A DNA stretch of 64,000 nt from Candidatus Gastranaerophilales bacterium (GTDB lineage: Bacteria; Cyanobacteriota; Vampirovibrionia; Gastranaerophilales; Gastranaerophilaceae), in the NCBI GenBank assembly GCA_944323335.1, contig CALUSB010000003.1, positions 3,635 to 67,634 of the forward strand, written 5' to 3'. How positions within the stretch are numbered: position 1 is the stretch's first letter; every line of letters begins with the position of its first letter. Of this stretch, positions 1 through 60,946 are shown piece by piece. A program made the position numbers and the translations under genes. The notes below the pieces were generated by a model that was given only the letters and a program-made list of their open reading frames with translations, did no database searches and was not told where the DNA came from.

Positions 1-248
1 AAGCAATAAATTTTGCAAAATACCAAAATTTAATGATAAAAGAAGGTGTTTGGGAAAAACCTTTAATTTCGTATGACACACTACTTGACTTAGATAACGA
101 TGATAAATCCGACATAGATTTAGATGGTGATGGCGTTCCCGATATGGATTTAGATGGTGACGGTATCATAGATATGAGCTCGGAACACCACTTGGCTTAC
201 ATTTGGGAAGCATTTAAAGACTTTTTGGGGGACATTTTTGGAGATTAG
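1..248 (+). CDS. 3' end of a gene that begins upstream of the window; acidic tail with tandem DxDxDG calcium-binding-type repeats
   Basis: The frame of the 33..248 ORF stays open back to nt 3, so the CDS is truncated by the window edge. The tail reads DLDNDDKSDIDLDGDGVPDMDLDGDGIIDM. TAG 246-248 directly abuts the ATG of the next gene. Confidence 0.5.
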   Translation, partial: AINFAKYQNLMIKEGVWEKPLISYDTLLDLDNDDKSDIDLDGDGVPDMDLDGDGIIDMSSEHHLAYIWEAFKDFLGDIFGD

Positions 249-2690
249 ATGAAAATACCCGGCACTACTAAAGTCAACTTCAAGCAAACAATAGCGCCCT
301 ATAAAAATACAAACCCCGCTACAAGTTATAGGGCCGGATTTTATCCTGTCATAGGAGCAGATTTTACAGATGGCGCTTATCCTTACACCAAGATAACAAA
401 CCCGCTTGAAAACTATAACAGCGCAGAAAAAATATTCAGAAAAAACATAAAAAACGGCAAGGGTATATTTGGCAGCGCCCAAAACTCTGAAAAATTTATA
501 TATAACGAAAAAATAAGAAAAAATGTAGTAAAATTCTTCGCAAAATATTCTCAAGAGGAAATTCAAAGACTCGAGAAGAAAAAAATTCTTACAATTGATG
601 AAGTGCGCTACAAAAATGATTTGAAAAACGTAAGAGATTTCTTTAGTGAATATGAATCTCTTCTTGACAAACAAGAAGATAAAATACTGCCCAAGATTGC
701 CTTTGCAGGAAATAAAAACGAAAACAAGCCTGCAATATTCATGTCGTACGAAAGTGAAAAAAATTGCAAAAATATGATTCATGGTTTCTCGGCAGCTTGC
801 GGCCTTGTATCAGCCGCCCTTGGGGAAGGTGCAGCAGTCGGAGCAGATACTATCCCCCTAAGAGTTCTACAGTTTGCAATGTTTTCTTCGATGGCAGCAT
901 ATTTAAAAGTACCCCCTATTGCATCCTTAGAATATTACACAAAAGAAATGTTTGCAGGGCAAACACTCGGGGTAGGAGGCGCAAGACTTATTACCTCTTG
1001 GCTTGGCATAGGCGCGCATGCAGCATCAGGGGCAACAGGAACAACAGCGGTAACAGGCGGAGGAGCAAATGCCGCAATAACAGGGGGAGTTAGAGCAGTC
1101 AATAGCTCATTAAGCATACTAATAACGGAAAAGATGGGTCGAGGATATGTCAAAAGGGTTAAAGAAGACAGAATGAATTTGCGTGACCAAACGGTAGAAA
1201 CGGCGGCTTACTTTATTGGAAGAGGTCTTTTCACCTCGCAAAACCCATTTGAAGACATTTCAGGTGTCGACTTTAAAGACGCATCTTCGCCCGAGCTTAT
1301 AAAAGAAGCCTTGGAAAAAATCCCCTTGGAACAACAAGAAGCCATAGCAACAACTCTAAGTTCACTCAAGGATTTTGGCAGAAGGGGTGCAAACTTCTTT
1401 GCAATCAACTTTGTGTCAAACATATTTACATCAGATGACAATAGCATTGAAACACTTAAAAAACGAGCATTTAAACTTTTTAAACAATCACTGATACAAG
1501 CAACAATATACGAGCTATGCGACCAAACGGTTTCTGCAACCATATCAAAAGAAGCCCAAGAAACTGTTAAAGAAATGCAGGAAAATCTCGAGAAATATCC
1601 GGAAGTTTATAGGGTATTTATAGAAAAAGAACATGAATTTTTTGAACAAATCAATATCGATACATTAGATAGTGAAGCCTTTGTAAGGCAATTCAAAAAC
1701 AGAACGTTCGTATACAACCTACAAAACTTTTCAAGAAGCGCAATTGAAGAATTTACACATGCCTGGGTAAACAGAAATAATTCCAAAACTGCCGCGACTA
1801 CTCTTGCAACTAAAAAAGGCAGGGAAGAAGAAATAGCAAAAAATAAAGAAATTAATGACTGTGTAAGCGAAGAAGAAAAAGAACAGATTTCTCAATTAAT
1901 AAATGAAATGGGTTCTTTAGTAACCGCAAAAAACACTAAAGAAAATGAAAAAGAATTTGGCTACGGTAGAATTGCCGGCTATGAAAAAATAAAAAATGAA
2001 CTGACACAAAAATTTATTATGCCCCTTGGTCTTGAGTCAGTTGGTTCATACACCACAGCGCCGCCTGCAATTCTTTTTTACGGGCCTACAGGCGTTGGTA
2101 AAACCGCTCTTGTAAGGGCAGTTTCAGAGCAAGGCAAATGTTTTATGCCAAAATTTAGAGAACCTGACAATATTGAAGAATTGTCAGAAGAACTTGAAAG
2201 ATTAAAAAAAGAAGCCGGAAATTCATCAAGACACACTGTAATTAAAATAGATGAATTTGATGATTTTGGTTCGGACAAAGAAGCAGCAAAAGTTTTTGCC
2301 GACTTTATAAAAGACTGTGCAGAAAATAAAATAACTCTTATGCTAACCACAAACGAACCCTTAGATATAGATGCCTCTATTTTAAGGCAAACAATTAATA
2401 TACCCGTATCGCCGCCGAATAAAGATGATTTAAAAGATGTAATTAAATTCTATTTTAGCGATTTTAGCGATACTGATTGCAAAGAAATAGCTGAAGCTTT
2501 AATAAAAAAGGCAAAAAACAATGCATATTCCAACTCGCAAATAAAACAACTGTCTTATGCGCTATTTAGGGGTAAAGATTCAAAAACTCCGGAAACTGTG
2601 TTAAAATTGATTCAAACAATGCCCCCTGAAATCCTGACATCGGATATTGAAAAACTCCAAAGAGAAAAAAGTAAGCTTGAGGAAATATAA
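249..2690 (+). CDS. Divergent AAA+ ATPase (C-terminal ATPase module) with Gly/Ala-rich DUF697/EcsC-like segment and unknown N-terminal region
   Basis: 813 aa with SD GGAGA 4 nt upstream. Walker A GPTGVGKT (nt 2082-2105), Walker B VIKIDEFDD, TTNEPLDIDASILR. Residues 176-304 are Gly/Ala-rich and amphipathic. The central region is K/E-rich and helical. Confidence 0.8.
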   Translation: MKIPGTTKVNFKQTIAPYKNTNPATSYRAGFYPVIGADFTDGAYPYTKITNPLENYNSAEKIFRKNIKNGKGIFGSAQNSEKFIYNEKIRKNVVKFFAKYSQEEIQRLEKKKILTIDEVRYKNDLKNVRDFFSEYESLLDKQEDKILPKIAFAGNKNENKPAIFMSYESEKNCKNMIHGFSAACGLVSAALGEGAAVGADTIPLRVLQFAMFSSMAAYLKVPPIASLEYYTKEMFAGQTLGVGGARLITSWLGIGAHAASGATGTTAVTGGGANAAITGGVRAVNSSLSILITEKMGRGYVKRVKEDRMNLRDQTVETAAYFIGRGLFTSQNPFEDISGVDFKDASSPELIKEALEKIPLEQQEAIATTLSSLKDFGRRGANFFAINFVSNIFTSDDNSIETLKKRAFKLFKQSLIQATIYELCDQTVSATISKEAQETVKEMQENLEKYPEVYRVFIEKEHEFFEQINIDTLDSEAFVRQFKNRTFVYNLQNFSRSAIEEFTHAWVNRNNSKTAATTLATKKGREEEIAKNKEINDCVSEEEKEQISQLINEMGSLVTAKNTKENEKEFGYGRIAGYEKIKNELTQKFIMPLGLESVGSYTTAPPAILFYGPTGVGKTALVRAVSEQGKCFMPKFREPDNIEELSEELERLKKEAGNSSRHTVIKIDEFDDFGSDKEAAKVFADFIKDCAENKITLMLTTNEPLDIDASILRQTINIPVSPPNKDDLKDVIKFYFSDFSDTDCKEIAEALIKKAKNNAYSNSQIKQLSYALFRGKDSKTPETVLKLIQTMPPEILTSDIEKLQREKSKLEEI

Positions 2691-2978
2691 ATGAAAATAT
2701 CACCGGTTATATCGCAGAGTTTTAAAAAAAGTACAAACATACAACCCTCCCAAGATAAAAAACCTTTTAAAATTGATACTTGGGACAAGCAGATGTATCT
2801 GCTAAGTGCCGTTATAACATCGGGTGCAGGTGTAAAATTTGCAAAAAAGGGCTTTTCTGGGGCAACACCGTTAGGCAAAACCGCAAAAGTCGCCGGCGGA
2901 GCTTTTATAACTCTCGTCTCGGCTGCCGCACTAACCTTACTTTGGAAAGTCCTCAAAAATATAAATTCCGACAAGTAA
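2691..2978 (+). CDS. Small membrane protein (two Gly/Ala-rich hydrophobic segments), unknown function
   Basis: 95 aa. The ATG abuts the upstream stop (TAAATG) and follows SD GAGGAAA. Hydrophobic segments are LLSAVITSGAGV and GGAFITLVSAAALTLLWKVL. Confidence 0.6.
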   Translation: MKISPVISQSFKKSTNIQPSQDKKPFKIDTWDKQMYLLSAVITSGAGVKFAKKGFSGATPLGKTAKVAGGAFITLVSAAALTLLWKVLKNINSDK

Positions 2979-2981
2979 GAC

Positions 2982-4196
2982 TTATATTTTTTTCAAGTAT
3001 TTATCTATATCGCATCTGAGAAGATACGCGTCTCGTTGTTTACCTTGCATCTCGCATATCATGGCGTTTATTTCTTTATAGCGTATGACATCGGCGTAAC
3101 GACCTTTTTCTGCAGCGTTGTCAGCCAATTCCGTTAACCAGCATTTATGAATTTCAAGACGGCTTTGACTCATATTTTTTATGTCATCATCAAGATGAGC
3201 GCTCCAAGTTTTTTTCTGTCCGAGCATTAAATTATCAAAATTAATTTTAAGAGGTATTCGTCTGCGATTTGCCAAAAAAGCAGAGTCAATGCCCCACTGA
3301 TTATCCGTACCAAAAACTATGGTCATGGGCTCTTTGTTTTCTGATAAAGAAAACAAAAACGCTTTCATATCACCTATAGTAAAATTTGATACACGAGCCG
3401 GGTTTAAGATATTGGAAAAATCATCTACAAATAATACTGTTCTTTTGCCCGTTTTTTGATATTTTTCCTGTGCATACTGAAGCTCTGTATTTAGCCTATA
3501 TATAGCATCATCCTCATCATCAGGAAGTTTAAAGCGAACAATTCTTGCATCAAGCTCGCTCTCCAGCCACTGTTCAATCTCTTTTCTTGTTTGAGCATTT
3601 GAACCTTCAAGCATCACGGCAGTTGGAACATCATCTTGCCCGCGAGATATAGGCTCTATAAATTCACAAACAAGTGCATCTTTGATTTTTGCACTTAGCT
3701 CTTCTTTTTTTATTCTTTCATTATCAGCTTTCTCAAGTTTTTTAAGGTCAGATTTAATTTTTAGCTCTTGTTCTTTTTTTTCTTGAATTTTTTCATTATT
3801 CATATCGAACATAAGAGCTCTTATTTGCCTTATTTCAGGCTCAATAATCCTTTTTACCCTTTTTTCTTTAGCAGGGTCTATAACAAGGCTTTCTATAACG
3901 GCAGGTGTAAGCAGCAAAACAATCAAAGCGGCTTTATAGAGGTTTTCGACCACAGGTGAAGGCGGGGGGTAAATTTCCCTGTATCTTTCCTTGAAATACT
4001 CCTGCTCCCAGTTTTTCTTGCCAAGATATTTTTCTGCGACAGCTATTTGTTTGTCGTCGTAGTAGCCCGAGGGATACTCTTTTCCTCTGAAACTTATAAA
4101 CACATCGCCCCTGTTGTTTTTCCTGAGACAATGTTCGACATTACCTGCATTAGTTTTCAAAACAGGCTTATTAAAGAAAACCGGAGCTATTTTCAT
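2982..4196 (-). CDS. Membrane-anchored AAA+-like protein with degenerate Walker A (probable pseudo-ATPase)
   Basis: 404 aa with an ATGA overlap with the upstream gene. TM segment LYKAALIVLLLTPAVIESLVI, then a K/E coiled-coil stretch. The AAA-like core aligns to the neighbouring paralogues, but the P-loop position reads LEGSNAQTRKE (nt 3582-3605). Walker B-like VLFVDDF is kept. Confidence 0.7.
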   Translation of the reverse strand: MKIAPVFFNKPVLKTNAGNVEHCLRKNNRGDVFISFRGKEYPSGYYDDKQIAVAEKYLGKKNWEQEYFKERYREIYPPPSPVVENLYKAALIVLLLTPAVIESLVIDPAKEKRVKRIIEPEIRQIRALMFDMNNEKIQEKKEQELKIKSDLKKLEKADNERIKKEELSAKIKDALVCEFIEPISRGQDDVPTAVMLEGSNAQTRKEIEQWLESELDARIVRFKLPDDEDDAIYRLNTELQYAQEKYQKTGKRTVLFVDDFSNILNPARVSNFTIGDMKAFLFSLSENKEPMTIVFGTDNQWGIDSAFLANRRRIPLKINFDNLMLGQKKTWSAHLDDDIKNMSQSRLEIHKCWLTELADNAAEKGRYADVIRYKEINAMICEMQGKQRDAYLLRCDIDKYLKKI

Positions 4197-4822
4197 TTGT
4201 TTTCACCCTTTTTAAAATTTTTATTTATAACAACTGCGACAGCACCAAGCGCAGCACCAATAGCATTAAATGCAAGTATGTAATTTCTTTTGCATTTTAT
4301 AAGCGCCTTGCCCATATCTTGTCTCATTTCGCAAACATGGGCATTTACGTGTTTTTCGTACAATTCATTATAATCTTTTGTAAGTTTTTCTAATGAGCGT
4401 TTAGCCATAGCTACAGTTTCCGCTAAATTTTGTTCACAATTTTTGAATTTCTCGAAAAAATGTCCCGATACGGATTCTTGCGCCAACCGCCTTGCTTCTT
4501 CAATTCTTGGAGTATTCTCATTTATTATATTTCTTGCAATTTGAATGTTTTGCTTTAACAACTGCACATAAGGCATTGAGTCAAAATTATCGGCCAGTTT
4601 CTTTGTTGCAGATTCAATGTATTGCTTATACAATTCACTTTCTGTATTTACCGCCCGCTTCGATAATATTGCCCCGATAACACCGCCTAAAAGAGTTGCA
4701 CCCACAAGTATAAAAGGCTCTTTCGGAAGCTTTGTTTTGTTGATTTTTTGCTCACTTGGGAGGGCATTTGAGACTTTTGGTATATTAAACTGCTTGTAGG
4801 GGTTATTTATATTGTTAATCAT
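4193..4822 (-). CDS. Two-TM helical membrane protein, unknown function
   Basis: 209 aa with SD GGGAGGGA, overlapping the upstream gene by 8 nt. TM segments near both termini (FILVGATLLGGVIGAILS; ILAFNAIGAALGAVAVVI) flank a long helical region. Confidence 0.65.
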   Translation of the reverse strand: MINNINNPYKQFNIPKVSNALPSEQKINKTKLPKEPFILVGATLLGGVIGAILSKRAVNTESELYKQYIESATKKLADNFDSMPYVQLLKQNIQIARNIINENTPRIEEARRLAQESVSGHFFEKFKNCEQNLAETVAMAKRSLEKLTKDYNELYEKHVNAHVCEMRQDMGKALIKCKRNYILAFNAIGAALGAVAVVINKNFKKGENK

Positions 4823-6164
4823 CCTGTGTCCCTCCCACTATTAATTCGACTTCGTTCTTATATTTTTCTAAGCTTTCTTTGTCAATCTTTGGAGACTCTT
4901 TTCTTATATAATATAACAAATCTTCTTGCGATACCTCACTACAGTGCTTGACGCATTCTTTGCATATATCTTCAATTTGGGAATTATTATACGCTCTATT
5001 TGGCAAAACGGAACAAACTTCTTCAGCCAATTCGGCTAAATTAATCTCATCCATATTTACATTCGGACAATCTTTTAGATAGTGTTCAAAAACAAGGGCT
5101 GAGTTTATTTTATCCGGAGGGTCAATTGCAACTTTTATAGGCATTCTGCTTGAACTTCTGAGTGCCGAGGGAATATCGAGAGGGTTATTTGTTGTAGCAA
5201 AAATTGTACAGTGGTAATCTTGTGAACAATTCTCCAAAAATCTTTTTAAACTCTGTACGACGGAAGATGTGCTATTCATAAACCTGTCTGCTTCATCAAC
5301 CAAGATTATTGTCCTAACACCATTTTCAAGAAAATTTTGCTGCGACATTTTAGCTATTGCCAAAAGATTATCATAAAATGTTTTTTCCTTATCTTTTCTG
5401 CTTCTTGCCGTAGGACTCGGCTCTGCTTTTTTAAATTCACAATTTGCACTGTGTGCAAAAGCCTTAGCAAAACTTGTTTTTCCGTTACCTGCGGGGCCAA
5501 AAAATAATATAGCATTAGGCATTTCAACATCTTGACCCGCCATTTCATAAGGAAGCAGATTTATAAATCTTTCCGTCAAAAGAAATTTTTCTTCCTCGTA
5601 ACCCGCTATTGAATCAAAACCTTTGTGAGAATTTTTATTTTGGGATAAAATTTGAGTTTTTTGCCTTATTTGCTCAGCCATAAGAAGAGCTTTTTTCACC
5701 TCTTGCAATTCCTTGGCATCTGTATTTCTTTGTTTTAACAGTTCATAATTTTGCTTCAAAAGCTCCAGATTTTCATCCTGTATTTCAAGGGCTATTTCCT
5801 GAGCTTTGAGAAATCCGCTTATTTTATAATCCTCATCACGAAGTATTTGCATTCTTTTTTTTGTTTTAAAAAAACCGCCTACCTGAGAAAGTCTTTCTTT
5901 ACTTGCCTCTTTTATGCTTCTATAGCCTAATTCAAATCTGGTGACAATACTATCAGCCGCTTTAGCATTGCTTTCTCTTAAAAATACGTCTTTTATGGCA
6001 TTATAAGCTTTGCTATGTTCTTTTTTATCCCCATCTATTACTGCGCAAAAAGAAACAGGAAAGCTTTTGCCTTGATTTTTTGGCAAATTTCTTCCGTTGG
6101 TCATTTTATAGCTGTTTACAGAATATATTTTCACTTGCAATATCCCGTTACTATAGACATACAA
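4815..6164 (-). CDS. Divergent AAA+ ATPase with coiled-coil N-terminal half (paralogue of the 249..2690 ATPase module)
   Basis: 449 aa from ATG 6164; alternative starts are GTG 6134 and ATG 6104. Walker A GPAGNGKT (nt 5475-5498), Walker B IILVDEADRF, TTNNPLDIPSALR, AYNNSQI. Confidence 0.8.
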   Translation of the reverse strand: MYVYSNGILQVKIYSVNSYKMTNGRNLPKNQGKSFPVSFCAVIDGDKKEHSKAYNAIKDVFLRESNAKAADSIVTRFELGYRSIKEASKERLSQVGGFFKTKKRMQILRDEDYKISGFLKAQEIALEIQDENLELLKQNYELLKQRNTDAKELQEVKKALLMAEQIRQKTQILSQNKNSHKGFDSIAGYEEEKFLLTERFINLLPYEMAGQDVEMPNAILFFGPAGNGKTSFAKAFAHSANCEFKKAEPSPTARSRKDKEKTFYDNLLAIAKMSQQNFLENGVRTIILVDEADRFMNSTSSVVQSLKRFLENCSQDYHCTIFATTNNPLDIPSALRSSSRMPIKVAIDPPDKINSALVFEHYLKDCPNVNMDEINLAELAEEVCSVLPNRAYNNSQIEDICKECVKHCSEVSQEDLLYYIRKESPKIDKESLEKYKNEVELIVGGTQDD

Positions 6165-6219
6165 AACAAGTGAAGATATTTTTTTGTCAATATAATTTAT
6201 AAATATCTATATAACAGCA

Positions 6220-6498
6220 TTATTCATCGCACAATTTTAACTCAATATTCTTTAGTAACTTAAGTGCAAGTTCGTTTTCAAGCTTGTACCAGATTATATT
6301 ACCCTCTCTGTAGCCCTTTATCACTCCACAATTTTTTAAGATATTAAGATGCTGAGAAATAAGTGACTGAGAGACTTTTAGCCTCTCAACCATGGTATTC
6401 ACATTGCATTTTCCTTTGTGCATTAATCCGCAGGCAATTTTTAACCTGAGCGGATGGCTTAGTGCTTTAAAAATTTCAGAGTATTCTTGTGCGTTCAT
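6220..6498 (-). CDS. ArsR/SmtB-family winged-helix transcriptional repressor
   Basis: 92 aa. HPLRLKI...VSQSLISQHLNILKNCGVI is typical of ArsR-type wHTH proteins. Cysteines at 23, 31, 57 and 90. SD GAGGTA. Confidence 0.85.
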   Translation of the reverse strand: MNAQEYSEIFKALSHPLRLKIACGLMHKGKCNVNTMVERLKVSQSLISQHLNILKNCGVIKGYREGNIIWYKLENELALKLLKNIELKLCDE

Positions 6499-6507
6499 AT
6501 TTACCTC

Positions 6508-6547
6508 TTGACAATATTAGTATATTATAATATTCTAATATTGTCAA
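6508..6547. promoter_or_regulatory. Perfect 13-bp inverted repeat operator carrying overlapping divergent sigma-70-type promoters
   Basis: TTGACAATATTAG-N14-CTAATATTGTCAA. Plus strand: -35 TTGACA 6508-6513, 17-nt spacer, TATTCT 6531-6536. Minus strand: -35 TTGACA 6547-6542, 17-nt spacer, TATACT 6524-6519. It lies between the ArsR gene and the CoADR-fusion gene. Confidence 0.55.
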
Positions 6548-6563
6548 CAATATGAGGTGATTT

Positions 6564-8924
6564 ATGAAAACTGTTATAATAGGCGGCGGAGCAGCAGGTG
6601 CAAGCTGTGCGGCAAGATTAAGAAGATTGAATGAAAACTGCGAGATATTAATTTTAGAAAAAACAAATGAAATATCTATAGCAAACTGCGGTTTGCCTTA
6701 TTATGTTTCAGGGGTGATAAACGAAAGAGAAAAAATCCTTGTTTCATCTGTCGAAAAATTTAAAAACTGGTTTAATATAGATGTTAAATTAAACACTGAA
6801 GTTGTATCAATAGATAGAGAAAATAAAACCGTACTGACACAAAACGGAGAAAATATTTCATACGACAAACTCGTTCTTGCACAAGGTGCTTCACCTATTG
6901 TTCCAAACTTTGAAGGAATGGACTCAAGCAAAGTATTCAGTGTCAGAAACCTATCCGATGCGGATAAAATAAAAGATTATATAAAAAACAACAACTCGAA
7001 AAAAGCCGTTGTAATAGGCGGCGGGTTTATTGGAGTTGAAATGACAGAAAACCTTTGCGAAATGGGGCTTGAAACAACTCTTGTAGAGCTTGCAGAGCAG
7101 ATTTTAGCTCCTGTTGATAGTGAAGTTGCAACTTTTGCACAAAATACAATGAAAGAAAACGGCGTTGAACTGATACTATCTGACGGCGTAAAAGAATTTA
7201 GAGAAAATACAATAATCCTAAATTCAGGTAAGGAAATAGCTTTTGACATAGTTATTATGGCAATTGGCGTAAAACCTGAAACAAAGCTTGCAAAAGACTC
7301 GGGGCTTGAAGTTCAAAGAGGTATTATCGTAAATGAATTTATGCAAACATCTGACAGTAACATCTATGCTGCGGGCGACAGTGTTGAGATATTAGACTTT
7401 GTAACAAATACAAATACCCTAATCCCGCTTGCAGGGCCCGCTAACAGACAAGGAAGAATTATAGCGGATAATATATGCAGCACAAAATCAACTTACAAAA
7501 AATCTCAAGGTACATCGGTAATAAAAGTTTTTGACCTGACTGTTGCAAGTGTGGGGAACAATGAAAAACAACTAAAGCAAAAACAAATCCCCTATTGGAA
7601 AACCTACACATTCTCAAGGTCGCATGCCGGCTATTACCCCGATTCAACCCAGATTTTATTTAAGCTCATTTTTGATAACTCAGGTAAAATCCTTGGCGCA
7701 CAAGCCGTGGGAGATAGCGGAGTTGAAAAAAGAATAGATGTAATTAGCTCAATTATGCGTCTTAACGGCACGGTTCAAGATATGCTTGATAGCGAGCTAT
7801 GCTATGCGCCGCCTTATTCTTCAGCTAAAGACCCTGTTAACATTTTAGGTATGAACGCCGATAATATATTGAGAGGCTTTGTAAAACCTGCCTATATGGA
7901 AGACTTAAATGACGCTCTTTTGGTTGATGTCAGAGTTCCTGTTTCATATAAAACAAACACAATTAACGGCGCTATAAACATACCGATAGATGAAATAAGA
8001 AAAAGAACAGACGAAATCCCAAAAGATAAAAAAGTAGTACTGTTCTGTAACACAGGCTACACAAGCTACTGCGCCTCAAGGATTTTAATTCAAAAAGGCT
8101 ACAACAATGTCTATTCACTGTGCGGCGGCTTTGAATTGTACAAAGAATTAACAAAAACCCTAAGTACTGTGCCAAAAACCGCACTATGTGCAAATGTTGC
8201 CTCAAATAGTCAAAAGACCATAATAGATGCAACGGGACTACAGTGCCCCGGGCCCATTATGAAAGTATCAGATGCAATTAATAAGGCAAAAGACGGTGAA
8301 GTATTTGAAATACGCTGCAATGACAAAGGCTTTAAATCTGACATCGGTGCTTGGTGCAGCAGCAGCGGAAACAGCCTTTTAGAGATAAAAAACGAGGGCA
8401 GAGAAATTGTAGCCACAATACAAAAAGGAACAGTCCAAAATAAACAAAATAACGATAAAAACGCTCAAACCATAGTAGTTTTTTCAAATGATTTAGACAA
8501 AGTGCTTGCCTCATTTATCATTGCAAACGGGGCAAAGGCAAGCGGCAAAGATGTAGTTATGTTCTTTACTTTTTGGGGGTTAAATGTCCTTAGGAAACCA
8601 AACAAAAAAGTTAAAAAAGGCTTTATAGACAAAATGTTTTCTCTTATGATGCCAAACGGAGCAGATAAACTTACATTATCCAAAATGAATATGCTCGGCT
8701 TTGGCTCAAAATTAATGAAATGGGTAATGAAAAATAAAAACATATCAACCCTTAATGAGCTCATACAAACAGCACAAAAGAGCGGCATTAAGTTTATCGC
8801 TTGTAATATGTCTATGGATGTTATGGGTATTAAAGAAGAAGAACTCATCGAAGGCGTTGAAATAGCAGGTGTTGCAAAATACATAGCAGAAAGCAATGGC
8901 GCTAATTCAAACTTGTTTATATAA
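6564..8924 (+). CDS. CoA-disulfide reductase-type flavoprotein fused to rhodanese, TusA/SirA-like and DsrE-like domains
   Basis: 786 aa. GGGAAG dinucleotide fold and redox Cys in SIANCGLPYY. Rhodanese loop CNTGYTS. TusA motif LQCPGPIMKV. The C-terminal ~150 aa is DsrE/DsrF-like. SD GAGGTG. Confidence 0.85.
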   Translation: MKTVIIGGGAAGASCAARLRRLNENCEILILEKTNEISIANCGLPYYVSGVINEREKILVSSVEKFKNWFNIDVKLNTEVVSIDRENKTVLTQNGENISYDKLVLAQGASPIVPNFEGMDSSKVFSVRNLSDADKIKDYIKNNNSKKAVVIGGGFIGVEMTENLCEMGLETTLVELAEQILAPVDSEVATFAQNTMKENGVELILSDGVKEFRENTIILNSGKEIAFDIVIMAIGVKPETKLAKDSGLEVQRGIIVNEFMQTSDSNIYAAGDSVEILDFVTNTNTLIPLAGPANRQGRIIADNICSTKSTYKKSQGTSVIKVFDLTVASVGNNEKQLKQKQIPYWKTYTFSRSHAGYYPDSTQILFKLIFDNSGKILGAQAVGDSGVEKRIDVISSIMRLNGTVQDMLDSELCYAPPYSSAKDPVNILGMNADNILRGFVKPAYMEDLNDALLVDVRVPVSYKTNTINGAINIPIDEIRKRTDEIPKDKKVVLFCNTGYTSYCASRILIQKGYNNVYSLCGGFELYKELTKTLSTVPKTALCANVASNSQKTIIDATGLQCPGPIMKVSDAINKAKDGEVFEIRCNDKGFKSDIGAWCSSSGNSLLEIKNEGREIVATIQKGTVQNKQNNDKNAQTIVVFSNDLDKVLASFIIANGAKASGKDVVMFFTFWGLNVLRKPNKKVKKGFIDKMFSLMMPNGADKLTLSKMNMLGFGSKLMKWVMKNKNISTLNELIQTAQKSGIKFIACNMSMDVMGIKEEELIEGVEIAGVAKYIAESNGANSNLFI

Positions 8925-8926
8925 AC

Positions 8927-9793
8927 CTACCTTAAAAAATTCGTCACAAATCTTTTTACCTTACAGAAAAAGCAAGAGTCTTTTTTATGAATTTCTTTAA
9001 TGGAAGTTATCTCATAAGGCTCAGGCTGCGGCGTTCTTTGATATTTTACCTTAGGTAAGCCTAAAAGCATTACATAAACAGGCTTATACCCGGATGGTAT
9101 TTCAAGCATTTCGCACAACTGCGGGAAAAACTTTAAACATGCCTGCGCAAAACCGCACCAGCAAGTACCAAGACCCAAGTGCTGAGCGTAAAGCTCAATG
9201 TAGCTAAGTGCTATTATCGGGTCAACATTAGCACAAGGTGCGCTAAGAGGGGATGAAACCACAATCATATGCGGAGCGCCCCTAAAAATTACATCCTCTC
9301 CGTTTAAAAAAGCGTCTTTATACCTTGAAAACTTATTCATAATAGGGGAAAGCGCCTTATATGACATAGTTTTTATAAGCAAATCGTTAACTTTTTTTCT
9401 GATTACATCCATTGCCGATTTTTTCTCAACTATTGAAAAATGCAGCGAGTGGTTATTACAACCTGTTGGAATGTACGGGAGCATATCTTTTAACTTTTTA
9501 AAGGTTTCTTCAGGTATCTCTTCATCCAAGTACTGCCTTACGCTTCTTCTTGATTTTATAATGTCTAAAATGTCATTATACCCTACAGTGCAAGAATCTT
9601 GAGGGTTTTTGCCATTGAATGAAAGTGCGCCCGTCGGGCATATTGAAAAACAATGCTGACAAGAAATACATCTTGTTTCATCATCGATTTTTGGAAAATT
9701 TTCACTATCAAAGCTTATACAACCGCTGACACAATCACTTACACAAAGCCCGCAGTGAGTACATTTGCTTTTATCAATGGTAATAGTTTTCAT
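8927..9793 (-). CDS. 2x[4Fe-4S] ferredoxin domain fused to nitroreductase-family protein
   Basis: 288 aa. CTHCGLCVSDC and CISCQHCFSICP cluster motifs are followed by a nitroreductase-like region (RRSVRQY...). Confidence 0.8.
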   Translation of the reverse strand: MKTITIDKSKCTHCGLCVSDCVSGCISFDSENFPKIDDETRCISCQHCFSICPTGALSFNGKNPQDSCTVGYNDILDIIKSRRSVRQYLDEEIPEETFKKLKDMLPYIPTGCNNHSLHFSIVEKKSAMDVIRKKVNDLLIKTMSYKALSPIMNKFSRYKDAFLNGEDVIFRGAPHMIVVSSPLSAPCANVDPIIALSYIELYAQHLGLGTCWCGFAQACLKFFPQLCEMLEIPSGYKPVYVMLLGLPKVKYQRTPQPEPYEITSIKEIHKKDSCFFCKVKRFVTNFLR

Positions 9794-9832
9794 ATTCGCC
9801 TCCTATTTACCACATCATTATACATTATTTGT

Positions 9833-11317
9833 CTAACTGACAAAACCCATTCTTACTTCATCTTTTTTCTTTAGACAATCAAGCGCGCTGTCAAAATCTT
9901 CTTGAGTAAGAACAATTTTTTCTACATCTTTAATATCAAATGTACCTTGCTCCATCTTGGCAAATATATCTTCCCTTTTGTATGCAAATTTTCTTGCTTC
10001 TTCAACAATAGCTGCTATATCCGCCCCGCTTGCATTAACTTTTGAGAGTTTTTTTGCGAACTCTTGAGGTGAAAATTTTTCATCAATTTTTTTATTTTTA
10101 GTATAAATGTTAAATATCTCAAGACAACCCTTTTCATCAGGCAAAGGAACATTTATGGTCTTACCGAATCTTCCCGAGCGCACAATAGCTTCATCTAAGA
10201 GTTCTTTCTTATTTGTTGCAGCCATAACAAAAATTCTGCAGCCGTCTTTTTCTATATCGCTCATAAGGGTTAAAATCTGATTTACCACTTTATCATCGTG
10301 TCGGGTAGAATTATCGCCCTCTCTTTTTCTTGCTACAGCGTCAAATTCATCTATAAATATAACACAGGGCTGATTTTCTCTTGCTTCCTCAAAAAGCTTA
10401 CGCCAGTTAGCTGCAGATTCTCCAATCCACTTTGACTCAAGTTCAAGTCCGTTTAGTTTAATAAAATGCACGCCTGATTCATTTGCTGCAGCCTGTGCTA
10501 TCATTGACTTTCCGGTACCGGGTTCACCCTCTAAAATAACCCCGTGGTTAACTATTTCAAAAGCTTCGGGGTATTTTATAGGAAAAATAACCGACTCTTT
10601 TATTTCTTTTATTGTTTTATCCAAGCCGCCAATGTCAGAAAATTTTATCTTCTCGGATTGTTTTCTTATACTTTTTGTTCCCATTTTCTCAAGGTTGCTT
10701 CTGTTTATTTTATAAACAGCCTCTTGTTCAGAGCGAGAAAAATCATGTATTTGTATTTTTGATTTTATCAAATCACCGATTGAAGTGTTTTGGTTTTTTG
10801 CAACCCTAAAAGAAGTTTTTCTTCCGTCAAAAACAAAAGCAGACTCGGGAGTAATTTTAAGAGATGCGCTTTTATTCATCCTAAGACTTTTTTCACCCTC
10901 AAGGCGATAAATCGGAGCATCAGAAAGATTTTGCATATAAAAATCACCAAAATGATTTCTTGCAATTGCGATATTGCCGTCCAGATTTTCATCTTCTACA
11001 AAAAATATTCTGGATACTATTTCAGGGTAAGTTTCAAGATTTTCCAGAAAATCTTTTCTTGCACCCTCAATATCTTTACCTGCAAGCAAAACATCATCAT
11101 CTTTCATAAAATTAAGGGCTGTTGAGACTTTATTTTCAAAAGAAGAATATCTGTTATCCAAAGCACCTCTGAAATTTATAAGAGAGCAGTTATAATTTTT
11201 ATCCACCAGTAAATCACTTTTAGCACCCAAGTACAAAGGATTTGAGCTGCCCAAAGAATTGATTTTGTTTATATGCGCAGTGTGCAGACTAACTGCTGAC
11301 AATGATTTTATTTTCAA
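9833..11317 (-). CDS. Classical AAA ATPase (Cdc48/FtsH-type single module) with ~220-aa unknown N-terminal region
   Basis: 494 aa with a TTG start 5 nt after GGAGG. Walker A GEPGTGKS (nt 10505-10528), Walker B VIFIDEFDAV, ATNKKELLDEAIVRSGRFGK, SGADIAAIVEEA. No TM segment and no protease domain. Confidence 0.85.
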   Translation of the reverse strand: MKIKSLSAVSLHTAHINKINSLGSSNPLYLGAKSDLLVDKNYNCSLINFRGALDNRYSSFENKVSTALNFMKDDDVLLAGKDIEGARKDFLENLETYPEIVSRIFFVEDENLDGNIAIARNHFGDFYMQNLSDAPIYRLEGEKSLRMNKSASLKITPESAFVFDGRKTSFRVAKNQNTSIGDLIKSKIQIHDFSRSEQEAVYKINRSNLEKMGTKSIRKQSEKIKFSDIGGLDKTIKEIKESVIFPIKYPEAFEIVNHGVILEGEPGTGKSMIAQAAANESGVHFIKLNGLELESKWIGESAANWRKLFEEARENQPCVIFIDEFDAVARKREGDNSTRHDDKVVNQILTLMSDIEKDGCRIFVMAATNKKELLDEAIVRSGRFGKTINVPLPDEKGCLEIFNIYTKNKKIDEKFSPQEFAKKLSKVNASGADIAAIVEEARKFAYKREDIFAKMEQGTFDIKDVEKIVLTQEDFDSALDCLKKKDEVRMGFVS

Positions 11318-11433
11318 ATTTGCCTCCGGCTGCGAATTAAATTATTTACAATTGTAGTAAATAAGCCCAATAAGTCAATGCTTTTAACCTAAAACTTAAT
11401 ATTTATTAATACTTTTCTTGCTATAATTTTTCT

Positions 11434-12120
11434 ATGGGAGCAATTGAAGATTTAAAAAATTTAGAAAACAAAGAAAAAGCCCGACATCTTATGAAGTTTT
11501 TTAAAACTAAAGAGGGGCAATATGGCTACGGGGACTTGTTTTTAGGCATATGTGTTCCCGATAACAGAGTTATTGCAAAAAAGTACTACAATAAAATAAC
11601 GCTCGATTATCTGCAAAATATGCTAAATGACCCCTATCATGAAATTCGCCTGTGTGCGCTTTTGATGATGGTTTTAATATATGAAAAAACAGACAAAAAA
11701 GAAGAGATTTTAAACCTTTATGTAAAAAATACTCATCGTATAAACAACTGGGACTTGGTAGACTTAAGCGCACCAAAGATTATTGGTGCAAATTACATTG
11801 AAACAAAAAATCCAAAAATAATAAATGAACTTGCAAAAAGCAACCACCTTTGGTCGCAGAGAATAGCGGTTGTATCTCAGCAAAGTGTCATTAAAAGCGG
11901 AGATTTCAGTATAATACTTGAGCTTGCGCAAAAATTTCTTGAGCATAAACACGACCTTATGCAAAAAGCCCTCGGGTGGATGCTAAGAGAGATGGGCAAA
12001 AAAGATGAAAAAACTCTTCTTGATTTCCTTGATAAATACCACAAAACAATGCCAAGAACTATGTTAAGGTATTCTATTGAAAGATTAACGCCGCAGCAAA
12101 GAAAGCATTATATGAGCTAA
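11434..12120 (+). CDS. DNA alkylation repair protein (AlkC/AlkD-like HEAT-repeat family)
   Basis: 228 aa. Strings typical of this family: HEIRLCALLMMV, NNWDLVDLSAPKIIG, LWSQRIAVVS, KALGWMLREMGK. Confidence 0.75.
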   Translation: MGAIEDLKNLENKEKARHLMKFFKTKEGQYGYGDLFLGICVPDNRVIAKKYYNKITLDYLQNMLNDPYHEIRLCALLMMVLIYEKTDKKEEILNLYVKNTHRINNWDLVDLSAPKIIGANYIETKNPKIINELAKSNHLWSQRIAVVSQQSVIKSGDFSIILELAQKFLEHKHDLMQKALGWMLREMGKKDEKTLLDFLDKYHKTMPRTMLRYSIERLTPQQRKHYMS

Positions 12121-42493: not shown

Positions 42494-43432
42494 TTATAGC
42501 CCATGTTCGTCAAACCATCTTTCCCAGTCGGTTCTTTTATCTGAAGGGCCATCATCGTCATCATAAATAACCTCTTCAGGCTCTTCTTTATTATCAACCG
42601 TTACACCAAAGAAGATAAATTTGTAATCATCAAATCGCTTTCTCAAGCTTCTTGGAGGTCCAAAGAACTTATCTTTATGTTCCCTTAAATACCTTAAAAT
42701 ATCAGCCGAATCAAACTCTTGAGTTAAAAGCTGATGGTAAGGGCTTTTAACACCGAGCTTTTGGACACTTTTAGACACAGAGGGTTTTATTGTTCTTGTT
42801 GTCTTATCATTGTATATCTTATAGGCAAACTCTCTTGCTTCATCTTCGTCGTTAATAGGCTTACCGTATCTTTCTAAAGAAAGAAGATTCATAGCACGCC
42901 CTATATCATCTTTTATGAGTGCTCTCATATATGGCATACGTTGTGCTTCTCTCATTTGAGCCGTTTTAGGGTTAATATAATCATCTTCATTAACACCCTC
43001 AAGTTTTTTACTGTCTCTCCAAAGACCTGCTATAATTTCTTCAAACTCCTGACAACTGGGATATCTTACATAGTCGTCTTTTTCAGGATAAGTTGAAGCG
43101 GCCGCACAACATAGATTAAAATATTCTTTCATGCATCTGTCTAAATCCCAGCTTGTCGGCATTGCATGTCCTGCAGCATATGCAAAAGACCTTGCATAAA
43201 TTGCAAGATTATGTACAATTCCTTCTTTACCGGCATTAATGACCTCGGGCCTATAAATTACAACTACAGGCTGCTTTCTTCTGCCGAAAGCAGGATTTGT
43301 TTTTACAAAAGTATCTTGAATATTATTTTGAAAAGCTTTTGTATTTTGATAACCGTTAATGGGTACAGAATAATTTGAACCGGCATAGATATTTTTTGCA
43401 GGGGAATATGCCGTATTAAAATCAACTTTCAT
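42494..43432 (-). CDS. Hypothetical protein with the shared N-terminal module and an acidic C-terminal tail
   Basis: 312 aa. SD-like AAGGA 7 nt upstream. No TM and no recognisable family. Coding-like composition. The stop abuts the ftsY stop. Confidence 0.6.
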   Translation of the reverse strand: MKVDFNTAYSPAKNIYAGSNYSVPINGYQNTKAFQNNIQDTFVKTNPAFGRRKQPVVVIYRPEVINAGKEGIVHNLAIYARSFAYAAGHAMPTSWDLDRCMKEYFNLCCAAASTYPEKDDYVRYPSCQEFEEIIAGLWRDSKKLEGVNEDDYINPKTAQMREAQRMPYMRALIKDDIGRAMNLLSLERYGKPINDEDEAREFAYKIYNDKTTRTIKPSVSKSVQKLGVKSPYHQLLTQEFDSADILRYLREHKDKFFGPPRSLRKRFDDYKFIFFGVTVDNKEEPEEVIYDDDDGPSDKRTDWERWFDEHGL

Positions 43433-57509: not shown

Positions 57510-58904
57510 TTAAAATTTCATTTCCAACTTATCTTTTTTTGACATGATGTTTTCCATGGCTTCTTCTTGTACTTGTTCTATATCAATTCCGATGCCGAAG
57601 AAATCCCTGAATTGCTCAATTATATTTAAAACTTTTGATTTTATATTACCCGAAACAAGTGAAATGTCACCGGTTGCAATTTCTGATTCAATCTTACTTT
57701 TGATTTTTGCCTTAGCATCTTTTACTTCAGCGTCACTTGCCTTACGCATTTTTATTTCTTCTTCTACGCCGCCTTCCTTGGCTTCTTTGCGTTCGGTTTT
57801 TCCACCTATACTTTTTGTTTCCGTGCCTTTGTACACTTCTTTATTGCCATCAGGTGCTATTGTAGTAATTTCAATATCATACCTGCTTTGATTTACAGTG
57901 TTTGTTTTTCTGTAATTTGAATAATGTGTGCGCTCTACAGTGCCGTCTTGGTCATATCTTACAGTTTTGCTGCCATCTAAGACACCGTTTTTATCGTAGC
58001 TATTTTTTCCTTTTAGAACTACGTTGCCTTGCTCATTTTTTCTTTCAAATTCTTTTACCTTGTCGTTTTTGTTTAAAGTCTGCTCTTCTGTGAAATTCCT
58101 TTCGTTACCATTAGCATCTCTGCTTATAATTTTAAGACTTCTTGTTTTTGTTCCGTCTTTTTGTATTTGATAATTGTCGTAAATAAATTCTTTGGTAGAA
58201 CCGTCAGAACTTACGGCAACTTTTGATTTTAAATTATTATTTTTATCATATTTATATTCTGTTTTTTTAACCAGAGTGTCTTCGCCCTCGCCCGTTGTAA
58301 CAACTTTTACAATCGGTTTTGAAGTTTTCGGGTCATATTCTATTGTTTTTAAAGTGGGTACGCCATCATTTGATGATTTTATGGTTTTTGCCACTTTTTT
58401 GCCATTATCATATTTAAGCTCTGTAACAACCTGATTATCTCCTTTGCCGGAAGTTACTGTTTTAGAAGTTTTTTCACCTGCTTTATAGTCAATAGTTGTT
58501 GTAACTTTATTTTCACCCTTACCGGTTGCTATTTCTTTTTGCACTACCTTGCCGTTTTTATTAACGGTTTGAACAACTTGTTTTCCATTGGGGTAAGTTT
58601 TGATAATCTGGTTGCCTTTTGCTTTTACTTTTACATTTGAATTATTTTTCGCAGCACGCTCTTTAATCTGTTGTGCTTTCTTCTTTGCTTCTGCTTTTGC
58701 TTCTTTTTGAGCTTTAGCTTTTGCTTGTTTTTGCGCCTCTGCCCTAGCAGCCTCTGCCTTTGCCTGTTTTTGTGCTTGTGCTTTCTTGTTGGCCTTTGCC
58801 TTTGCCTGTTTTTGTGCCTGAACTCTCTTTTGTTCATCCGCCTTTTTAGCTTTGTTTGCTTTGTTAGCTTTTTTTGCACTCAGTGCACCAATCTTTGCCA
58901 TCAT
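57510..58904 (-). CDS. Lys/Ala-rich N-terminal domain fused to YD-like beta-hairpin repeat protein
   Basis: 464 aa. The first ~85 aa is an AKKANKANKAKK...QKQAKAKA repeat. It is followed by ~20-aa repeats with YKYDKNNNL, SYDKNGVL and RYDQDGTV. Confidence 0.65.
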   Translation of the reverse strand: MMAKIGALSAKKANKANKAKKADEQKRVQAQKQAKAKANKKAQAQKQAKAEAARAEAQKQAKAKAQKEAKAEAKKKAQQIKERAAKNNSNVKVKAKGNQIIKTYPNGKQVVQTVNKNGKVVQKEIATGKGENKVTTTIDYKAGEKTSKTVTSGKGDNQVVTELKYDNGKKVAKTIKSSNDGVPTLKTIEYDPKTSKPIVKVVTTGEGEDTLVKKTEYKYDKNNNLKSKVAVSSDGSTKEFIYDNYQIQKDGTKTRSLKIISRDANGNERNFTEEQTLNKNDKVKEFERKNEQGNVVLKGKNSYDKNGVLDGSKTVRYDQDGTVERTHYSNYRKTNTVNQSRYDIEITTIAPDGNKEVYKGTETKSIGGKTERKEAKEGGVEEEIKMRKASDAEVKDAKAKIKSKIESEIATGDISLVSGNIKSKVLNIIEQFRDFFGIGIDIEQVQEEAMENIMSKKDKLEMKF

Positions 58905-59971: not shown

Positions 59972-60946
59972 CTAATACGGAAGAGCAAAAATATTCATAG
60001 ATAGCGGTCGAGATTGTCTTACAAGGCAAAATGCGCCGTCATCAGTGCAGAGTGAATGCGGCTCATAACCAAGAGCTTTGCATTGAGTTCTTGTTAAGAC
60101 ATTGTTTCTTGCTATACAATCAGCTTGAGCAAAACTTATTTCTGCCATACTTTTATCATTTATTCTTAAAATTTCGGTTATCCTATCATCCGCCCTGTAT
60201 TCGCCTGAATCTACCTCAGCTTCGGTTACTTTTCTTGAGCGATATACGGTATATGCAAAAGGATAATCCTCGTTAATAAATTTAGTTGTTTCACTGCCGC
60301 AAGACGGGTGTTTTTTAAATGTCGGATTCTGAAAAGTTTCACCCGAGCATGCACTTGGTGTTGAAGAAGGCACAATATCACTGCAAGTACCGGGGACTAC
60401 CTCTCCTGTTTGCAGAAGTTTTAGAGGGAACTGGTCTTTTCCAACCTTATTTTCCCCGTCATCTCCGTCTATATCAATCATAATATCCTTCATGCCGACA
60501 GCAACCGTAGCACACTGACCGACATTTGACGCAGTACCTCTATATGTTGATGTAAAATCTTTTTCAAGTCCTGAATATGAAATCATATTTGAAGTTTGAA
60601 AATTGGGCTTGCCTGTTTTACCTCTGCCGTTTGCAGGGGCAGTTGCAACAGTTTTTACACATTTATAGTTACCGATAAGACTTAATGCCTCAGCCATCTG
60701 TACACATGTTTTGTTTGAATTGGCTTCAGGTGAGCTAATTAAATCATCGGGAAGGTTTTTAACCAAGTTGTCGCTCAAAACAAACTTGGCCGCATCATTA
60801 AGGTTTTTAACCGAAGCATAAGCAAAAGGCAAAACTCTGATTTTTTTAGGCTTTATATTTTGTATTGAAAGTGTCATAAGTATTGACAAAACAAGCATGG
60901 CAACAACAAGCTCTGCCATGGTCCAAGCATTTTTATAAATTTTCAT
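59972..60946 (-). CDS. Prepilin-type (type IV pilin/pseudopilin-like) protein with large Cys-rich globular domain
   Basis: 324 aa. N-terminus MKIYKNAWTMAELVVAMLVLSILMTL has an A/W-T-M-A-E variant of the G/F-T-L-I-E processing motif, followed by a hydrophobic helix. Eleven Cys in the remainder. Confidence 0.6.
   Translation of the reverse strand: MKIYKNAWTMAELVVAMLVLSILMTLSIQNIKPKKIRVLPFAYASVKNLNDAAKFVLSDNLVKNLPDDLISSPEANSNKTCVQMAEALSLIGNYKCVKTVATAPANGRGKTGKPNFQTSNMISYSGLEKDFTSTYRGTASNVGQCATVAVGMKDIMIDIDGDDGENKVGKDQFPLKLLQTGEVVPGTCSDIVPSSTPSACSGETFQNPTFKKHPSCGSETTKFINEDYPFAYTVYRSRKVTEAEVDSGEYRADDRITEILRINDKSMAEISFAQADCIARNNVLTRTQCKALGYEPHSLCTDDGAFCLVRQSRPLSMNIFALPY

Follow-up and report, generated by a model that had tools for sequence, protein, structure and literature searches.

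A conserved six-gene module of Gastranaerophilales encodes classical-clade AAA+ paralogues, one of them a pseudo-ATPase, and candidate membrane partners

What might six adjacent genes build together when three of their products are AAA+ proteins, one of the three has lost its nucleotide-binding site, and the other three are, as far as their sequences tell, membrane proteins? This question is raised by a 64,000-nt stretch of Candidatus Gastranaerophilales DNA (contig CALUSB010000003.1 of assembly GCA_944323335.1, positions 3,635-67,634 of the forward strand), referred to here as the window. The six genes, which we refer to as the module, form two convergent operons, A-B-C on the plus strand and F-E-D on the minus strand; B, D, and F encode the AAA+ proteins, and A, C, and E encode the membrane proteins. 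A preliminary description of the locus had proposed a heteromeric, membrane-anchored AAA+ assembly that mixes catalytic and non-catalytic subunits. Complementary motif losses in B and D and natural gene fusions support the mixed assembly, and from them we infer co-assembly; anchoring through a transmembrane (TM) helix of D, however, did not hold up. Our reading, to which we give an even chance, is that the module encodes the subunits of a hetero-oligomeric AAA+ complex anchored in the inner membrane. Activated in trans and powered by ATP, this complex would thread no substrate and would instead act as a switch on partners of its own in the membrane and periplasm.

B and F are paralogues of each other within the classical AAA+ clade. 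Both match PF00004 (E-values of 1.5e-12 for B and 2.4e-16 for F), and they align with each other by BLASTP at 1e-26, with 30% identity over 268 aa that include the family-specific strings on which their paralogy had been proposed. The F-family profile matches p97, Cdc48, Afg2, and CdvC in PDB. Pairwise comparisons give weak matches for D (3e-6 and 1e-5), and D, unlike the other two, lacks the motifs of classical AAA proteins and scores under the gathering score of PF00004 (E 0.022). A profile of 11 D homologues, however, matches the F family with an hhalign probability of 98.8% (E 9e-17), with LEGSNAQTRKEI aligned opposite FGPAGNGKTSFA, and the AlphaFold model of D (mean predicted local distance difference test score, pLDDT, of 79) matches Vps4, Mpa, proteasomal Rpt, p97, and Msp1 with a Foldseek probability of 1.0, Vps4 structures being the top matches. 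Thus, D is a true pseudo-AAA protein of the classical clade, in agreement with its earlier reading as an AAA protein with a dead P-loop.

Motif columns were defined in an alignment of the F, B, and D AAA cores (three species) and a canonical AAA protein of 494 aa, which is encoded 3.7 kb from the module and has its pore loop (KWIGES), Arg fingers (RSGRFG), and SGADI string intact; the columns were then tabulated across the families. In F, Walker A and the sensor-1 Asn are intact in 19/19 sequences, Walker B reads DE in most, and two Arg residues (R-x4-R) occupy the second region of homology in all 13 module orthologues. B keeps the GK[ST] of Walker A and the sensor-1 Asn (each in 18 of 19 homologues) and the catalytic Glu of Walker B (19/19); its finger position reads ILxxT-xNIP (ILRQT-INIP in the window), and no Arg is conserved anywhere in the AAA domain of the 19 homologues. 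D shows the complementary pattern. GK[ST] and DE are missing from 11/11 homologues and there is no canonical sensor-1 Asn (the respective positions read EGSNAQTR, LFVDDFS, and FGTDN in the window), while an invariant Arg within N-x-R-R-I-P (R313 in NRRRIP; RI[PQ] in 11/11) takes the place of GRFG in the canonical protein. This candidate finger Arg is one of 83 columns that are invariant among the 11 homologues, and D-like proteins of other clusters keep it as HRV, HRT, or HRF (L018, L019, L026, L006, and L007). That B and D have degenerated in complementary ways is an argument for a mixed oligomer that is obligate and activated in trans.

The aromatic-hydrophobic-Gly pore loop 1 that characterizes unfoldases and translocases is missing from B, F, and D alike. 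At the position of KWIGES in the canonical protein, the residues of F are basic and non-aromatic (ARSRKDKEK), and B and D carry either a deletion or sequence unrelated to the loop. Without pore loops, a switch or remodeller is likelier than a threading unfoldase.

The membrane partners A, C, and E, together with their orthologues from other loci, found no family in Pfam, NCBIfam, PADLOC, or PHROGs. Of A, the window includes the 3' end only. Its translation, which begins at base 3, shares 73% identity over 80 aa with the C-terminal end of A (446 aa) from a related locus (L008). The preliminary description had correctly listed five complete open reading frames (ORFs) but missed this sixth gene, to which its upstream ORF belongs. 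In full-length A orthologues (390-487 aa), an N-terminal signature, described below, precedes a single TM helix, which is followed by an Asp-rich extracytoplasmic domain, in which D-x-D-G-like strings recur, and by a tail of acidic residues (alignment A8, TM scan); a profile search of PDB with this family was empty. By the positive-inside rule, the TM helix would be oriented N-in, and the Asp-rich domain is predicted to be periplasmic. C is a small protein with the same N-terminal signature and two Gly/Ala-rich hydrophobic segments. Its position, size, and hydrophobic pattern are kept and its sequence is poorly kept (28% mean column identity); C was also considered as a possible fragment of the DUF697 fold, but conservation at this level is too low for such a comparison. 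E has an N-terminal tail, a Gly-rich TM1, a helical region of ~125 aa, and TM2. TM scans thus reproduced both the two segments of C and the TM helices at either end of E that had been described before. E also matches PspA_IM30 and GNVR weakly, at the level of coiled coils. A role for E beside a Vps4-like ATPase, in the manner of PspA or ESCRT-III, was rejected, because the PspA_IM30 match (E 0.018, 15 bits versus a cut-off of 33.9) is of this coiled-coil kind and the helical region, flanked by a TM helix on either side, is predicted to be periplasmic.

Natural fusions connect the membrane proteins with the AAA proteins. In one subclade, E and D are a single protein of 603-622 aa (L018 4523-6391, L019 9867-11735, and L026 10110-11921), which has the N-terminal signature, a Gly-rich TM1, a helical region, TM2, an internal SF[T]G motif, and a D-type pseudo-AAA domain (hhalign 97.4% against the D profile). 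This arrangement would place the C-terminus of E and D on the same, cytoplasmic, side, so that E tethers D and the helical region of E is periplasmic. In another cluster (L006 9548-11833), a D-like pseudo-AAA domain (hhalign 95.9%) is joined to an active AAA domain in a 761-aa protein. Both kinds of fusion support a physical association of the separately encoded proteins. The D protein of the window does have a TM helix of its own, as previously noted, but this helix is restricted to the subclade near the window and is missing from L001, L004, and half of the homologues. The proposed membrane anchor therefore stands for A, C, and E, and perhaps for the DUF697-like domain of B, but not for a conserved TM helix in the pseudo-AAA protein. 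The L006 cluster itself has three AAA genes in a row and lies near a gene for an M16 peptidase with the N-terminal signature.

The best-conserved part of B, above its ATPase, is a Gly/Ala-rich domain at aa 165-330. It has 26 invariant residues, which include H178, C184, D200, Q208, and the string TEKMGxGY, and it holds a Gly-rich insert of ~25 residues. A search of 1.84 billion representative proteins with the profile of this domain gave 82 matches, 43 of them below 1e-10 and most of them B-like in length. The weaker matches include small proteins of 117-170 aa, and the family of these small proteins matches the B domain with an hhalign probability of 99.55% (E 2e-23). Among 25 members of this family, 15 match PF05128 (DUF697; best 4.3e-7, mostly just under the gathering score), two match EcsC, one has a TIR domain, and one has effector-associated domain 9 (EAD9). 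Another match to the B domain profile combines a caspase domain (Peptidase_C14) with an EcsC-like region. On the other hand, 19 B homologues searched against Pfam gave no direct match to DUF697 (PF05128) or EcsC (PF12787) even at E <= 10. The B domain is thus best described, judging from these profile comparisons, as a distant relative of DUF697/EcsC and not as a member of either family. The AlphaFold model of B residues 1-570 is all-helical (pLDDT 64), and Foldseek found no match to it in PDB with E < 0.9. A literature search on DUF697 found no functional study. Among the distant relatives, fusions to caspase, TIR, and effector-associated domain 9 (P0149, P0161, alignment A7) suggest that the DUF697/EcsC-like module is also used in conflict systems of other organisms.

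Nearly every module protein, in every species, begins with the same signature: M[KR][IV]xx[IV], a disordered stretch of 5-50 residues rich in Asn, Ser, Lys, and Gln, and [IV][SN]F[KR]G. The Phe of this signature hardly varies among F proteins and does not vary among D proteins. In AlphaFold predictions the segment is disordered, and an internal copy of the motif persists where E and D are joined in the fusion proteins. The signature also occurs in L001, L004, L006-L008, L013, L018-L034, L044, and L065, and its carriers extend beyond the module to the M16 peptidase of L006, to many orphan membrane proteins beside AAA clusters, and to the canonical 494-aa protein. In total, 41 non-redundant carriers were found in Melainabacterial loci; the combined pattern occurs in 28/470 ORFs of these loci versus 2/618 ORFs of loci from other phyla, in a sample biased to AAA clusters. 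Because other proteins of the window have ordinary Sec signal peptides, the signature is not a general export signal. We speculate that it is a lineage-specific docking or assembly motif. The canonical 494-aa AAA protein may well represent the ancestral type of the B/F/D family, or it may be a partner of the module. Its scores against NCBIfam are all under the cut-offs (EccA, 29.5 bits versus 467; SpoVK, 21 versus 423), and it has the same position in L105, a relative described next.

The range of the module was scanned with one genome per species by a pattern-limited search, and the counts are lower bounds that refer to the matches listed. Among named homologues, the nearest belong to Candidatus Gastranaerophilales. 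The six-gene convergent layout occurs, at 36-86% identity and with unrelated flanks, in at least 12 species-level genomes of Gastranaerophilales/Melainabacteria; it is complete or nearly so in L001, L004, L008, L010 (rearranged), L011, L013, L014, L018, L019, L023, L025, and L026. For example, the order F-E-D> <C-B-A is found again, with wholly different flanks, in contigs whose F homologues are ~41% identical. The co-localization suggested by the window is therefore conserved in related genomes. Relatives above 30% identity come, among the matches listed, from Gastranaerophilales, Melainabacteria, an unclassified 'Cyanobacteria' metagenome-assembled genome (MAG), and 'uncultured bacterium' MAGs, and none of those matches is in a genome assigned to another phylum. 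The module is found in both gut and environmental MAGs. A locus of 86% identity, L105, is syntenic with the window on both sides, and its A gene (446 aa) is followed by MarR and MFS genes. The same lineage has several further paralogous multi-AAA clusters, such as the L006 cluster described above.

In the mechanism that we propose, B, D, and F would occupy one mixed ring, and ATP bound to B would be hydrolysed only when a neighbouring D or F supplies an Arg in trans. With the ring order (F-D-B)2, each ATP site and each finger would be used exactly once, the finger-less B standing beside the dead site of D. Attachment of the ring to the membrane would come from E, which would tether D, from the DUF697/EcsC-like domain in B, and from the membrane proteins A and C. 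The complex would then be a conformational switch for, or a remodeller of, the membrane partners that belong to it, and its movement could be passed to the periplasmic domains of A and E. Our best guess for the physiological output is the assembly or remodelling of an envelope structure.

Several observations weigh against this mechanism. As far as its motifs go, F is complete enough for a homo-hexamer and might not depend on the other two. The assignment of the finger to R313 of D comes from a sequence alignment and a monomer model rather than from a modelled interface. In the TM scan, the Gly/Ala-rich part of B falls under TM-level hydropathy, and its membrane association is assumed from its distant kinship with DUF697/EcsC. 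In L105 (13449-15939), B is split into two overlapping ORFs (331 aa and 506 aa), owing either to a frameshift that made it a pseudogene or to an error in the assembly. In L084 1-10088 / L104 (IMGVR_UViG_3300011008_002719), B starts at ~residue 587 and is followed by C and D, and a prophage end (tail protein, phrog_1423-type reverse transcriptase, and endolysin) lies ~700 bp from the truncated gene, which looks like phage integration into gene B. With B truncated in one locus and split in another, the module appears to be dispensable in some strains. L084 was the one contig returned by IMG/VR scans, and we rejected a phage or prophage origin: the prophage end abuts the truncated B, which points to a prophage inserted into the module and not to a module carried by phage.

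Such dispensability is one reason to consider an anti-phage or conflict system, in which the AAA proteins would sense infection and the membrane parts (the DUF697-like domain of B, C, and E) would kill or depolarize the cell in abortive infection. The distant relatives of the B domain that are fused to TIR, caspase, and effector-associated domain 9, all hallmarks of conflict systems, point in the same direction, as do the many diversified paralogous multi-AAA clusters of the lineage and weak PADLOC matches of the IetA, mads8, and TRIP13 types. However, PADLOC-DB returned no system: its matches (mad8, IetA, and TRIP13; best 1.9e-6, 26 bits) cover the P-loop region only, at the strength expected of any AAA protein, and the membrane proteins had none. 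PHROGs likewise gave only generic AAA or clamp-loader matches. No nuclease, NADase, protease, or other recognized effector appeared in the Pfam and NCBIfam scans, in line with the preliminary description, which had seen no protease, Clp-N, nuclease, or other effector domain; MIT and TPR were also absent there. The six-gene order is kept over 36-86% identity and in MAGs from gut and environment, and the site is stable in close relatives, which argues for vertical inheritance rather than a mobile defence island. The GC content is that of the surrounding DNA, and the flanks of the module carry no integrase or transposase genes. We therefore regard a conflict system as unlikely. The abundance of signature carriers raises a different possibility, namely a machine of the Pex1/Pex6, Msp1, Bcs1, or EccA type that translocates, extracts, or inserts clients marked by the signature. 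The enrichment of the 41 carriers in Melainabacterial loci, their occurrence outside the module (the M16 peptidase, orphan membrane proteins, and the 494-aa AAA protein), the motif retained inside the E-D fusion, and a complex located at the membrane with periplasmic parts would all suit such a machine. Against it, none of the three AAA proteins has the aromatic pore loop 1 required for threading, other proteins of the window use Sec signal peptides, and the signature is present on the ATPases and on each structural component as well, as would be expected of a motif for assembly or docking more than of a tag for substrates. The chance that the module is a translocase seems quite small to us. 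Just as small, in our estimate, is the chance that F and B form separate homo-oligomers with separate jobs, D being a decayed paralogue or an adaptor and the genes merely co-regulated neighbours. F is fully equipped for a homo-hexamer, and the genes are split over two operons. Yet B, whose AAA domain has no conserved Arg, would be expected to hydrolyse ATP poorly as a homo-oligomer; purifying selection on D is strong and extends to its finger Arg; fusions of pseudo-AAA with AAA and of E with D exist; and the six genes always travel together in the surveyed loci.

Searches for characterized families gave no confident match: results from NCBIfam, PADLOC, and PHROGs were generic or far under the cut-offs. 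The best NCBIfam scores were those of CdvC (NF041006; 49 bits versus a cut-off of 650) and CDC48 (TIGR01243; 24-35 bits versus 803). Cdc48/p97 was rejected since B, F, and D have one AAA domain each, in contrast to an N domain with tandem D1/D2 domains, and TIGR01243 is far under its cut-off. SpoVK, CbbX, and EccA models were absent from the matches listed for B and from the best 25 of 48 for F, and none of their partner genes (sporulation genes, RuBisCO, or EccB-E/MycP) is present in any locus.

Of the known systems, Torsin offers the closest parallel in its motifs. Torsin is a finger-less ATPase that is activated by the membrane-bound pseudo-AAA proteins LAP1/LULL1 via one conserved Arg (PMC4358337). 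The module would resemble this pair in having an ATPase without finger and pore loop (B) and a tethered, dead pseudo-AAA protein that keeps one Arg (D or E-D), a likeness at the level of motifs. However, B, D, and F are nearest to the classical clade (p97, Vps4, and Rpt), and the resemblance would be convergent; Torsins are of the Clp/Hsp100-type clade. The module also adds a complete ATPase (F) and three membrane proteins, and its AAA side would be cytoplasmic, not lumenal. Homology to Torsin/LAP1 was rejected: neither was among the listed profile and fold matches of F and D, which were p97, Vps4, Rpt, Mpa, and Msp1 instead. A more far-reaching version of our reading, which we consider rather unlikely, is that Melainabacteria independently evolved a Torsin/LAP1-like machine from Cdc48-type ancestors. 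It would combine an ordered, pore-loop-less ring, a finger supplied by D or E-D to a finger-less B with a DUF697-type membrane module, ATP turnover coupled to movements in the periplasmic domains of A and E, and the lineage-wide signature as a code for docking, by which dozens of proteins, several paralogous AAA machines included, would be brought to a common structure.

Pex1/Pex6 with Pex15/Pex26, Yta10/12, and Rpt1-6 provide precedents for hetero-hexamers of paralogous classical AAA proteins with unequal catalytic competence, and the Pex1/Pex6 type also has a separate small TM protein as its membrane anchor. These complexes thread with aromatic pore loops and each of their subunits binds nucleotide in at least one domain, whereas neither applies to the module, and their sequence relation to it is limited to the AAA domain. 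The chloroplast Ycf2-FtsHi import motor is a large membrane-bound heteromeric AAA complex of active and degenerate paralogues from the cyanobacterial/plastid lineage. It is FtsH-derived, with M41 (pseudo)protease domains; the module, in contrast, has no Peptidase_M41 match and scores 17-29 bits against the FtsH model (TIGR01241; cut-off 600), and we rejected FtsH/FtsHi as its identity. E. coli YcjX-YcjF, GTPase-DUF697 fusions, and EcsC resemble the module in that a Gly/Ala-rich helical module is joined to, or lies beside, a P-loop NTPase, but the partner here is an AAA+ domain rather than a GTPase or YcjX-type NTPase, and the B domain has the 25-residue Gly-rich insert. Vps4/CdvC with ESCRT-III/CdvB comes to mind since CdvC is the best NCBIfam model for F, Vps4 is the top Foldseek match for D, and the module is membrane-associated in our reading. 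This candidate was rejected as well: there is no Pfam match to MIT, the CdvC score is far under its cut-off, and apart from the 15-bit coiled-coil match in E no ESCRT-III/PspA-type protein was found.

The module is undescribed in the libraries and literature that we searched, including literature on Gastranaerophilales/Melainabacteria with AAA proteins, DUF697, and EcsC with conflict domains. Its parts are of a known kind (classical AAA+), and it is the composition that appears to be new: a DUF697-like-AAA fusion, a finger-bearing pseudo-AAA protein, three orphan membrane proteins, and a common N-terminal motif. Mixed rings of live and dead AAA+ subunits and trans-activating pseudo-ATPases are mainly eukaryotic (Torsin/LAP1, Pex1/6, dynein, and ORC), along with clamp loaders. 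If our reading is correct, the module would add a bacterial case from the classical clade, small and encoded in operons, and with it an expressible model for the evolution of ordered hetero-rings and trans-activation from a Cdc48-like ancestor, with an ancestor-like paralogue encoded nearby. It would also give the widespread DUF697/EcsC module a defined NTPase partner. Gut Melainabacteria, which belong to the non-photosynthetic sister lineage of Cyanobacteria, are uncultured and have almost no experimentally characterized cell biology. A conserved envelope-spanning machine and a lineage-specific N-terminal motif for targeting or assembly would, if confirmed, be among the first molecular handles on Melainabacterial cell organization, and the predictions are directly testable with recombinant proteins even though the organisms are uncultured. 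The coordinates of the features discussed here are collected in Table 1.

Table 1. Features of the module and of related proteins in the window (positions are those of the window)
Feature	Position	Strand	Basis or sequence
Gene A, 3' end (last 81 codons; rest beyond window start)	1..248	+	
Gene B, 813 aa	249..2690	+	ORF map, PF00004 1.5e-12
B, order of parts: N-terminal signature, helical region, DUF697/EcsC-like Gly/Ala-rich domain, helical region, C-terminal AAA	249..2690	+	
B, signature	249-290	+	MKIPGTTKVNFKQ
B, DUF697/EcsC-like domain (aa 165-330)	741..1238	+	profile/hhalign
B, AAA domain (~aa 570-813)	1957..2690	+	GPTGVGKT, IKIDEFDD, LTTNE
Gene C, 95 aa	2691..2978	+	ORF map
C, signature	2691-2730	+	MKISPVISQSFKK
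Gene D, 404 aa	2982..4196	-	ORF map
D, order of parts: N-terminal signature, variable hydrophobic segment, long helix, pseudo-AAA with lid	2982..4196	-	
D, signature	4080-4196	-	MKIAPV...FISFRG
Gene E, 209 aa	4193..4822	-	ORF map
Gene F, 439 aa from the probable start GTG 6134	4815..6134	-	ORF map
Gene F, 449 aa from TTG 6164	4815..6164	-	ORF map
F, order of parts: N-terminal signature, coiled-coil region, classical AAA domain	4815..6134	-	
F, signature	6020-6134	-	VKIYSV...PVSFCAV
Canonical AAA, 494 aa, single-domain Cdc48/PAN-like	9833..11317	-	PF00004 8e-40; phmmer p97/Cdc48 PDB 1e-100
Canonical AAA, signature	11170-11317	-	KIKSLS...LINFRG
Orphan protein, 312 aa (42494-43432), looser signature	43270-43432	-	

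Both operons of the module are translationally coupled. On the plus strand, the A/B junction TAGATG has GGAG just 5' of it and reads GGAGATTAGATG (stop of A, start of B), and the B/C junction TAAATG has GAGG 5' of it and reads GAGGAAATATAAATG (stop of B, start of C). On the minus strand, F and E overlap by 8 nt (ATGATTAA), and E and D overlap by 4 nt (ATGA). The convergent ends of C and D (2978/2982) are 3 nt apart, and a consensus-based terminator scan of this junction found no terminator-like hairpin, as the preliminary description had stated; direct reading of the sequence likewise reproduced all of the ORFs, junctions, and motifs quoted there. Its length of 449 aa for F needs a small correction: the ORF itself is as described, but the homologues of F begin with MKIYS and a GTG at 6134, preceded by GGGA, is probably the start. 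An Rfam scan of window positions 1-12000 found no RNA family.

The interval between the module and the canonical AAA gene (window 6220-9793) encodes an ArsR/HTH_5 regulator, a 786-aa CoA-disulfide-reductase-like fusion with Pyr_redox, rhodanese, TusA, and DsrE parts, and a ferredoxin-nitroreductase fusion. This gene set is kept in L105 and is not beside the module in more distant species. Farther along the minus strand, a 464-aa ORF (57510-58904) is highly repetitive and rich in Lys, Ala, and Gln in the first 75 residues inspected (...AKKANKANKAKKADEQKRVQAQKQAKAKANKKAQAQKQAKAEAARAEAQKQ...). Another minus-strand ORF (59972-60946) begins with MKIYKNAWTMAELVVAMLVLSILMTLS, which resembles the N-terminus of a type IV pilin or pseudopilin with an atypical leader.

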